Source: Escherichia coli (GTDB taxonomy: Bacteria > Pseudomonadota > Gammaproteobacteria > Enterobacterales > Enterobacteriaceae). Taken from it: 64,000 nt of DNA. The stretch lies in the NCBI RefSeq assembly GCF_003334335.1, contig NZ_QOWQ01000001.1. One strand, 5' to 3'. The position numbers and the translations under genes were made by a program. Below the pieces are notes generated by a model, which saw only the letters and a list, made by a program, of their open reading frames with translations, did not search any database and was not told the origin of the DNA. Below are positions 29,177-31,446 of this stretch, one piece after another (position 1 is the stretch's first letter; every line of letters starts with the position of its first letter).

Positions 29177-29201
29177 CCCCGGCAAATGTCGGGGTTTTTT
29201 T
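29177..29201. terminator. Intrinsic terminator downstream of lysS (abuts idi stop)
   Basis: CCCCGGCAAATGTCGGGG hairpin followed by TTTTTTT. Confidence 0.75.
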
Positions 29202-29748
29202 ATTTAAGCTGGGTAAATGCAGATAATCGTTTTCTGGCTTCGCGATTTGTCGCCTGCATCACCATCCACGGACTGAACGCCCACGGCGTGGCATCAATAC
29301 CGTGTAATACATCTGCTAAATCACACCATTGATAATCCATCACTTCATCATCATTGATCTGTAACGCACTAGTGGAGCGTGCGGCAAATACCGGACACAC
29401 TTCATTTTCCACAATGCCACTCGGATCGGTGGCGCGGTAGCGAAAGTCAGGATAGATAGATTCAGGAGGCGTAATTTCCACGCCAAGCTCATAACGGCAA
29501 CGGCGGATCACTGCGTCTTCGTTGCTTTCTCCCAGTTGTGGGTGCCCACAAACCGAGTTAGTCCACACGCCAGGCCATGCTTTTTTGCTCAGTGCGCGGC
29601 GGGTAACTAATAATTGTCCTTTGGCATTAAACAGCCAACTGGAGAACGCGAGATGTAAGCGGGTGTCTGCCGTGTGTGCGGCATACTTTTCCAGCGTACC
29701 CGTGGGAACTCCCTGTGCATTCAATAAAATGACGTGTTCCGTTTGCAT
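29200..29748 (-). CDS. idi: Isopentenyl-diphosphate delta-isomerase (Nudix type 1)
   Basis: ORF track 29200..29748 (-), 182 aa; [26 protein letters not shown]. Confidence 0.9.
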
Positions 29749-29870
29749 AATTTCTCACATGTAATTCTGATCACTCATCATTATAGATAATTGAAGAGTG
29801 AAATGATTAACCAAGTGAGCGTTTATCGACAACCGCCCGTTTTGAGCGGATGCCGACAGGTAAAAACCAT

Positions 29871-29996
29871 TTAAAAAAGTAGCATCATATATTTGAAGCG
29901 ACTTTCAATGGCCATTGCAACACAGTCAGAAATGACAGGAATAGAGAGAGTAAAAAGCAACAACAGACTGAATATAGCGCGCATTAAAAAATTCAT
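29871..29996 (-). CDS. Candidate small protein (41 aa, hydrophobic N-terminal half), below ORF-track size cutoff
   Basis: Reverse-strand ATG at 29996 to TAA at 29871 encodes MNFLMRAIFSLLLLFTLSIPVISDCVAMAIESRFKYMMLLF; in the idi-uacT spacer. Confidence 0.35.
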   Translation of the reverse strand: MNFLMRAIFSLLLLFTLSIPVISDCVAMAIESRFKYMMLLF

Positions 29997-29997
29997 A

Positions 29998-31446
29998 TTA
30001 TTCTCCATGCTCATTTTTCTTCAGCTTGCGCATCAGAAGCCACATACGTACTGTCCTGACTTTTAAATCTTTATCAGAGACGGATTCCTTCACCAGGTCA
30101 GCATGATGCTGATAGCCATTAAAGAAGACGTTCAGCACAACGGCGCTAAGGGTTGCGAGCATAATGCCGCTATGTAGCAGCGGTTGCAGTACGGCCGGTA
30201 ACTTAGAAAAGAAATCGTGAGAGAGCGTCGGAGTCATGCCAACGCCGAGACTGATCGCCACAATATAGAGGTTGTAACGGTTGGTGGTGTAGTTACAGCG
30301 CGACAGAATTCGAATCCCTGTCGCCAGTACCATGCCGAACATCACTAGACCAGCGCCGCCCAGCACAAATTGCGGAATGGAGGCTACCAGCACCGCCATT
30401 TTTGGCACCATGCCAAACAGGATTAATATAATTCCCGAAGAAATACACACCCAGCGGCTATGAACGCGCGTCACGCTAACCAGGCCAACGTTTTGAGAAA
30501 ATGACGTGTGGGGGAAGCTGTTAAACGTGCCGCCTATCATTGTCCCTACGCCATCGACACGCAGCCCGCGAATAATATCGTGCGAAGAGAGTTTACGACC
30601 GACTATTTCACCCAGTGCCAGGAACATCCCCATCGACTCGATAAACACGATGATTAACACGGCAGTCATGGTCAGAATGGAAACGGGATCGAAAATCGGC
30701 ATACCAAACGACATCGGCGTAACAATCGCAAACCATGAAGCATCATGTAGCCCGGATAAATTGACTTCATTCATCATCCACGAAAGTAAAAAGCCAAATA
30801 CAATCCCCAGTAATACGGCGACGTTGGACATAAATCCTTTCGCATAGCGAGTAATGAGCAAGATAAAAATTAAGACGGCAAAGGAGATACCTAAATAAAC
30901 GGGATTACCATATTGCGGATTCCCTTTACCTCCGGCGGCCCAGTCAATACCCACCTGAATGATGCTAAGCCCGATAGAAGTAATAACCACACCGGTAACC
31001 AGTGGCGGGAATAAAGGCATCAAGCGACCGATAAGTGGCGCTAATAATGTGGTGATAAAACCCGCGGCGATAGTGGCACCAAATATCCCCAGCAGGCCGA
31101 TATCCGGGTTCATCCCAATGGCTATCATTGGTGTTACAGCAGCAAAGGTCACCGACATAATCACCGGCAGGCGGATCCCCATAAAGCGGCCGATACCGAT
31201 ACATTGCAATAATGTGACGATCCCGCAGCAAAAGAGATCCGAGCTAATGAGCATCGCAATAGCTTCTTTTGAGAGGCCCAGTCGGTCACCAATCATAAGA
31301 GGAACAGCGACTGCACCTGCGTACATGACAAGGACGTGTTGCAGACCGAGTATGATCAGCTTTCCTGGTGATAATATGCGGTCAACCTCATCAGTTGGGC
31401 GGTCTTGCCCAGAAGATGAGGGAAGTTGGGAATCTATGGCGCTCAT
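29998..31446 (-). CDS. uacT: Nucleobase:cation symporter-2 family uric acid transporter
   Basis: ORF track 29998..31575 (-); start set at internal Met (MSAIDSQLPSSSGQDRPTDE..., 482 aa) preceded by AAGGAGAAACACTG; NAT/NCS2 polytopic membrane protein. Confidence 0.85.
   Translation of the reverse strand: MSAIDSQLPSSSGQDRPTDEVDRILSPGKLIILGLQHVLVMYAGAVAVPLMIGDRLGLSKEAIAMLISSDLFCCGIVTLLQCIGIGRFMGIRLPVIMSVTFAAVTPMIAIGMNPDIGLLGIFGATIAAGFITTLLAPLIGRLMPLFPPLVTGVVITSIGLSIIQVGIDWAAGGKGNPQYGNPVYLGISFAVLIFILLITRYAKGFMSNVAVLLGIVFGFLLSWMMNEVNLSGLHDASWFAIVTPMSFGMPIFDPVSILTMTAVLIIVFIESMGMFLALGEIVGRKLSSHDIIRGLRVDGVGTMIGGTFNSFPHTSFSQNVGLVSVTRVHSRWVCISSGIILILFGMVPKMAVLVASIPQFVLGGAGLVMFGMVLATGIRILSRCNYTTNRYNLYIVAISLGVGMTPTLSHDFFSKLPAVLQPLLHSGIMLATLSAVVLNVFFNGYQHHADLVKESVSDKDLKVRTVRMWLLMRKLKKNEHGE

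Follow-up and report, generated by a model that had tools for sequence, protein, structure and literature searches.

We analysed a 41-codon open reading frame on the minus strand of a 64,000-nucleotide stretch of Escherichia coli DNA (the window). The frame runs from ATG to TAA at 29871-29996 and translates to MNFLMRAIFSLLLLFTLSIPVISDCVAMAIESRFKYMMLLF, exactly the product given in an earlier note on this DNA. It is flanked by uacT (29998-31446, minus strand) on one side and by idi (29200-29748, minus strand) on the other. The features of the locus are as follows.

29871-29996, minus strand: yqfG coding sequence, 41 codons plus TAA, encoding the small hydrophobic protein YqfG (from translation, identity to MG1655, RefSeq annotation and dN/dS)
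29998-31446, minus strand: uacT (ygfU), urate/H+ symporter gene, from annotation, with its TAA stop at 30000-29998
30003-30006, minus strand: GGAG, a Shine-Dalgarno-like element read from the sequence, 6 nt 5' of the yqfG ATG and within the final uacT codons
29824-29858, minus strand: stem-loop with a 14-bp stem, starting 12 nt 3' of the yqfG stop and lacking a U-tract in E. coli
29803-29874, plus strand: yqfH (b4753), a convergent gene of 23 codons that spans the hairpin after yqfG and has a 4-nt coding overlap with yqfG

With near certainty the frame is yqfG, a gene that had been annotated and partly studied before, and not a new one. It is identical at 126 of 126 nucleotides to b4684 of MG1655 (YP_002791254.1, also WP_001010156.1; positions 3032817-3032942 of that genome). 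RefSeq E. coli genomes label the product 'protein YqfG', and UniRef names the exact protein, which is found on at least 1000 contigs, YQFG_ECOLI. The earlier note had guessed at a small protein annotated in some E. coli genomes, and yqfG is that gene; its description of an ORF of 'unannotated size' between idi and uacT holds for the position and fails for the annotation. Its placement of the frame at the border between housekeeping genes (lysS/prfB/idi) and the purine-catabolism cluster is borne out by the MG1655 annotation. At 95% nucleotide identity or more, 5360 of 5426 complete E. coli genomes carry the 126-nt gene, and a 501-nt query spanning the frame has matches in 5393 of 5426 complete RefSeq E. 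coli genomes. Matches that cover the frame carry the order uacT, yqfG ('protein YqfG'), 'protein YqfH' and idi, and the location immediately 3' of uacT and 5' of idi, on the same strand, was confirmed in the annotation of two RefSeq genomes. Over the 8501 nt compared, the window runs collinear with MG1655 and differs from it at 3 single bases, 27267 (upstream of lysS), 29376 (in idi) and 30634 (in uacT), which points to a strain very close to MG1655 and yet distinct from it. Native YqfG was reportedly detected by tagging in the 2008 discovery paper of Hemm et al.

The size of the frame is uninformative by itself, because the window contains 254 ATG-initiated ORFs of at least 41 codons. What takes yqfG beyond chance is its identity to MG1655 and its presence in 5360 of 5426 E. 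coli genomes, together with its substitution pattern and its score against a family model. Within the yqfG frame, dN/dS (Nei-Gojobori; Escherichia, Citrobacter and locus L085) lies between 0.05 and 0.46, and the E. coli and E. albertii genes differ by 8 synonymous and 2 non-synonymous changes (dN/dS 0.05). As far as comparison of sequences goes, these values show yqfG to be a real gene under purifying selection. The family hidden Markov model, built from 22 members, gives its members 58-78 bits and no more than 8.8 bits to any of 5202 other small ORFs from all fetched loci; in the window, yqfG scores 66.6 bits and the next best of 909 small ORFs 6.5 bits. Scans of YqfG against Pfam and NCBIfam found no family, and an Rfam scan of 29600-30200 gave a single match at 21 bits against a model threshold of 100 bits, which is chance level.

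The family is wider than its Escherichia-only annotation suggests. A first word-indexed protein search had returned only Escherichia and Shigella, and the resulting picture of an orphan confined to Escherichia was overturned by synteny-guided tblastn and by profile searches. The earlier note had proposed TBLASTN for conservation in other enterobacteria, and the reading frame is indeed conserved there: tblastn of UacT loci found a 41-aa homologue in Citrobacter sp. R56, 54% identical to YqfG, and a 38-aa homologue in Kluyvera, each directly after a uacT-type gene. Profile searches added many relatives of 38-42 aa, all labelled hypothetical, in Escherichia, Citrobacter, Kluyvera, Enterobacter, Klebsiella and an Erwinia-like lineage. 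Named examples come from Citrobacter amalonaticus, C. enshiensis, Enterobacter cloacae, Salmonella enterica subsp. diarizonae, Apirhabdus, an Erwinia species, and Klebsiella oxytoca, K. michiganensis, K. pasteurii and K. aerogenes. At about 30-55% identity, these relatives keep the length and the R6, P20 and S/G-R-F motifs of YqfG.

The sole invariant neighbour of the yqfG family is a UacT-type permease gene. In 11 of 11 distinct genomic contexts (Escherichia; Citrobacter; Kluyvera; and the loci L085, L088, L089/L090, L091/L092, L093/L094, L095, L096 and L097) the small gene lies directly 3' of a gene for a Xan_ur_permease of 482-490 aa, on the same strand. The genes on its 3' side vary: idi, AraC-type regulators, a molybdopterin oxidoreductase, or a convergent gene (xdhC, mocA-like or phosphatase). 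Three of the permeases compared share only 41-43% identity with E. coli UacT and yet adjoin the small gene, so the two genes have been kept together through deep divergence; for comparison, XanQ, the nearest UacT paralogue in the window, is 26% identical to UacT. All permeases that have a YqfG-family gene carry the C-terminal tail VRTVRMWLL(L/M)RK, which in the window lies at about 30016-30060 on the minus strand (UacT residues ~463-477) and which is absent from the homologues of Morganella, Hafnia, Edwardsiella, Aeromonas and Burkholderiales. The tail is near-identical among permeases that are otherwise only ~42% identical (L088, L089, L091, L093, L004, L005 and L007).

In Klebsiella-type loci, a gene for a molybdopterin oxidoreductase of 715-718 aa begins 12-27 nt past the small gene on the same strand (L089 3638-5785, L091 3644-5800, L096 3641-5788). 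This suggests that permease, small protein and oxidoreductase form an operon there, an arrangement not present at the yqfG position of E. coli. It also raises the alternative that YqfG serves the purine/urate catabolic cluster generally, for example by anchoring or assembling a neighbouring Fe-S or molybdenum oxidoreductase, and not UacT itself. The placement of the small gene between permease and oxidoreductase in Klebsiella, Enterobacter and related contexts, and the divergent ygfT-like Fe-S flavoprotein gene upstream in those same contexts, would fit such a role. However, Escherichia, Citrobacter, L085, L093 and L097 keep the small gene without an oxidoreductase next to it; the permease is its one constant neighbour, and coupling-type spacing is seen only at the permease junction. 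We therefore consider a general role in the cluster unlikely, and favour an association of YqfG with the permease.

The junction between the two genes is very tight. In the window uacT ends in CAT GGA GAA TAA (stop at 30000-29998), and after one base the yqfG ATG follows at 29996. Purine-rich counterparts of the GGAG element occupy the same position in E. albertii, Citrobacter and locus L085 (GGTG, AGGA and GAGG), and the junctions of other genera consist of a stop, 1 nt and ATG, of an ATGA overlap, or of a gap of 3-4 nt. Kluyvera is the exception, with a spacer of ~66 nt and its own Shine-Dalgarno sequence. A scan for consensus sigma-70 promoters found none on the minus strand near or in front of yqfG. 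A 47-aa form of the protein, starting six codons further upstream at an in-frame ATG at 30014, was considered and rejected: it overlaps the end of uacT, its start is not conserved, and it is absent in Klebsiella-type loci. We regard it as highly probable that uacT and yqfG have the anatomy of an operon with translational coupling. The spacing would allow YqfG synthesis to be coupled to that of UacT by termination-reinitiation.

The spacer between yqfG and idi is strongly structured. The 142-nt minus-strand RNA of 29749-29890 folds with -41.4 kcal/mol (z = -5.1 versus shuffles), and a strong hairpin is present 3' of the small gene in 8 of 8 loci folded, including those of E. coli, E. albertii, Citrobacter, L085 and Kluyvera. 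The hairpin lies 10-17 nt past the small-gene stop, and its structure is kept while its sequence is unrelated from lineage to lineage (equivalents in L003, L081, L018, L083, L085, L006 and L087). A U-tract follows it in Kluyvera and is absent in Escherichia and Citrobacter. A consensus terminator scan did not report the hairpin after yqfG, because it lacks a T-run. The stem-loop at 29824-29858 is probably the 3' end or a stabiliser of the uacT-yqfG transcript. Because its start is probably coupled to uacT and a terminator-like hairpin follows it, yqfG belongs functionally with uacT and not with idi. A constitutive sigma-70 promoter of idi has been mapped within the yqfG-idi spacer (Shimada et al., 2014; PMC3946193). 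In K-12, the 3' arm of the hairpin includes TTGTCG, which the same authors assigned as the -35 element of this promoter (PMC3946193).

The close succession of uacT end, yqfG and structured RNA could also mean that the peptide has no function and that translation of yqfG acts in cis, by protecting the 3' end of the uacT mRNA, by preventing Rho termination or by controlling the hairpin, with the protease RseP disposing of the product. Loss of yqfG without replacement in some lineages would agree with this. A role in cis does not explain the purifying selection on the amino-acid sequence, or the retention of length and of R6, P20 and S/G-R-F at ~30-55% identity beside permeases that have diverged to ~42%, and we consider it very unlikely.

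The convergent 23-aa yqfH on the opposite strand was listed by VanOrsdel et al., 2018 (PMC6001520). Its frame is poorly conserved: an E. coli-labelled strain (L081) has an indel and an in-frame stop, identity falls to 61% in E. albertii, and nothing recognisable is left in Citrobacter. An NCBIfam scan of YqfH found no family. Conservation across yqfH may reflect the RNA hairpin and not a peptide.

We then considered what kind of protein YqfG is. Arg6, Pro20 and Ser/Gly32-Arg33-Phe34 are invariant in the family. Its members also keep an aromatic at position 36, a C-terminus that is hydrophobic and, within the hydrophobic helix, small residues in GxxxG-like spacing (25 and 29). The best 19-aa Kyte-Doolittle window has a mean of 2.2-2.5. 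AlphaFold predicts YqfG alone as a single helix of residues 3-40, with pLDDT 86-92 across residues 1-30, and the charge distribution fits an N-in orientation. We infer that YqfG is an N-in, C-out single-pass inner-membrane protein, because of this charge balance, the type II requirement of RseP (see below) and the one predicted helix. Arg6 would then lie on the cytoplasmic side, and the Ser/Gly-Arg-Phe motif (32-34) and aromatic, hydrophobic C-terminus at the periplasmic face. A bacterial lipoprotein is excluded since there is no lipobox (L-[AS]-[GA]-C; YqfG has I-S-D-C) and the cysteine is not conserved, members from outside Escherichia having G, S or A in place of Cys25.

The membrane assignment agrees with work on the intramembrane protease RseP. 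Akiyama et al., 2015 introduced YqfG as a functionally uncharacterised small membrane protein with a predicted type II (N-in, C-out) topology, and picked it for its resemblance to signal peptides; tagged YqfG was integrated into the membrane and cleaved within it by RseP (PMC4597795). The earlier note's description of the N-terminal half as hydrophobic and either transmembrane or signal-peptide-like is in line with that study. Yokoyama et al., 2023 classed YqfG as a class I RseP substrate (PMC10470546). [quoted passage not shown] From what these papers describe, YqfG resembles the other small membrane substrates of RseP (YkgR, HokB, HokE, Blr and YshB) and remnant signal peptides in being an N-in, C-out single span with a tiny periplasmic part; in contrast to signal peptides, it is encoded by a gene of its own and has a conserved motif at its C-terminus. 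Its status as an RseP substrate tells of its turnover, not of its function. Our literature search found no published function of YqfG and no experimental link between YqfG and UacT.

The likeness to signal peptides could be taken literally. YqfG would then be a Sec-type pre-peptide whose N-terminal 23-29 residues are a signal peptide; signal peptidase I would free a C-terminal peptide (e.g. DCVAMAIESRFKYMMLLF) at the periplasmic face, and RseP would clear the remnant. YqfG does have an n-region with Arg6, a hydrophobic core of 13-17 residues and Pro20 four residues before a small residue, the -3/-1 residues of Escherichia and Citrobacter (V/A, S; VIS|D, AIS|E) fit the signal peptidase rule, and it was signal-peptide likeness that led the authors of the RseP study to choose it (PMC4597795). 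Across the family alignment, though, no candidate site has permissible -3/-1 residues throughout: most 38-aa members have Q or R at position 23, which would at the same time be the -3 position of a cleavage behind residue 25, and several members have N, E or D at position 27. What would be the mature peptide is itself hydrophobic, the AlphaFold helix is continuous from 3 to 40, and HA-MBP-YqfG accumulates at about the expected full size in cells without RseP (PMC4597795). We find release of a periplasmic peptide decidedly unlikely and retain the single-pass membrane protein.

A type I toxin-like hydrophobic peptide, restrained by antisense RNA that arises on the convergent yqfH side, seems scarcely credible. 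YqfG is a small hydrophobic single helix, a convergent overlapping transcription unit (yqfH) exists, and several Hok toxins are likewise RseP substrates (PMC10470546). But yqfG has neither a promoter of its own nor a long leader and in all lineages stands in a coupled arrangement with a transporter gene, and yqfH is conserved in neither frame nor sequence and overlaps the coding region of yqfG by only 4 nt. According to the RseP papers, HokA inhibits growth and RseP suppresses the cytotoxicity of HokB, with no such report for YqfG in their available text (PMC10470546).

Altogether, we propose that YqfG is a small membrane partner of UacT. In this model yqfG would be the distal cistron of a uacT-yqfG transcript, and ribosomes finishing uacT would reinitiate at the yqfG ATG 1 nt further on, so that YqfG is made alongside UacT; the stem-loop would close the unit ahead of the separate idi promoter. 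YqfG would act on the stability, assembly or activity of UacT and would be removed by RseP through intramembrane cleavage. For the model as a whole (a single-pass protein, coupled to UacT synthesis, partnering UacT and cleared by RseP) we judge the chances to be about evenly balanced. More tentatively, and on balance doubtfully, YqfG and its relatives of 38-42 aa could be dedicated partners of UacT-type permeases, held at a fixed ratio by coupling, with removal by RseP tuning urate uptake in gut Enterobacteriaceae.

Such partners are known for other transporters and membrane complexes, as with KdpF and KdpABC, CydX and CydAB, AcrZ and AcrB, MgtS and MgtA, or MgtR and MgtC. YqfG has no sequence similarity to KdpF, CydX, AcrZ, MgtS or MgtR. 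It does share with partners of the KdpF and CydX type a length below 50 aa, a single helix, an operon with a membrane transporter and a coupled start. The role proposed for YqfG follows the same logic of conserved adjacency, and its binding to UacT or effect on it is putative. When UacT and YqfG were modelled in AlphaFold as a fusion through a GS linker, with a paired alignment, the output consisted of confidence values only, without a contact map, and gave no confident docked pose, with YqfG pLDDT at 70/67/59/45 compared with 91/92/86/70/52 alone.

We know of no permease of the NCS2/NAT family with a small partner; if the proposal is true, NCS2/NAT nucleobase transporters would gain in YqfG their first small-protein subunit or regulator. 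A real partnership would add the nucleobase:cation symporter family to the transporters under small-protein control, and would connect RseP to purine/urate handling in gut bacteria. The strict and deep linkage to UacT-type urate permeases in any case provides a functional lead for a protein that has been uncharacterised since 2008.

The partner would not be indispensable to the permease, since some tail-bearing UacT orthologues have no intact small gene; these are from C. freundii, Pluralibacter and Serratia oryzae, the last with a decayed remnant. In engineered strains that, going by study titles, use plasmid-borne YgfU/UacT for urate uptake, yqfG is said not to be co-expressed, and if so, YqfG is not an obligatory stoichiometric subunit. 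The small gene is absent after the UacT homologues of C. freundii, Pluralibacter, Morganella, Hafnia, Edwardsiella, Aeromonas and Burkholderiales. In S. oryzae (L005 5443-5547) a decayed start (MIRFWFAAALL...) is all that is left, overlapping the uacT stop and lying before a molybdopterin oxidoreductase gene. In C. freundii (L004 5453-5700) the order is uacT, a terminator and, directly after it, convergent lysS, with both yqfG and idi missing. Both cases are apparent secondary losses of yqfG. The converse arrangement occurs in E. coli strain 720632 (L001 2799-4237), in which an IS1A insertion truncates uacT and leaves yqfG, yqfH and idi intact.
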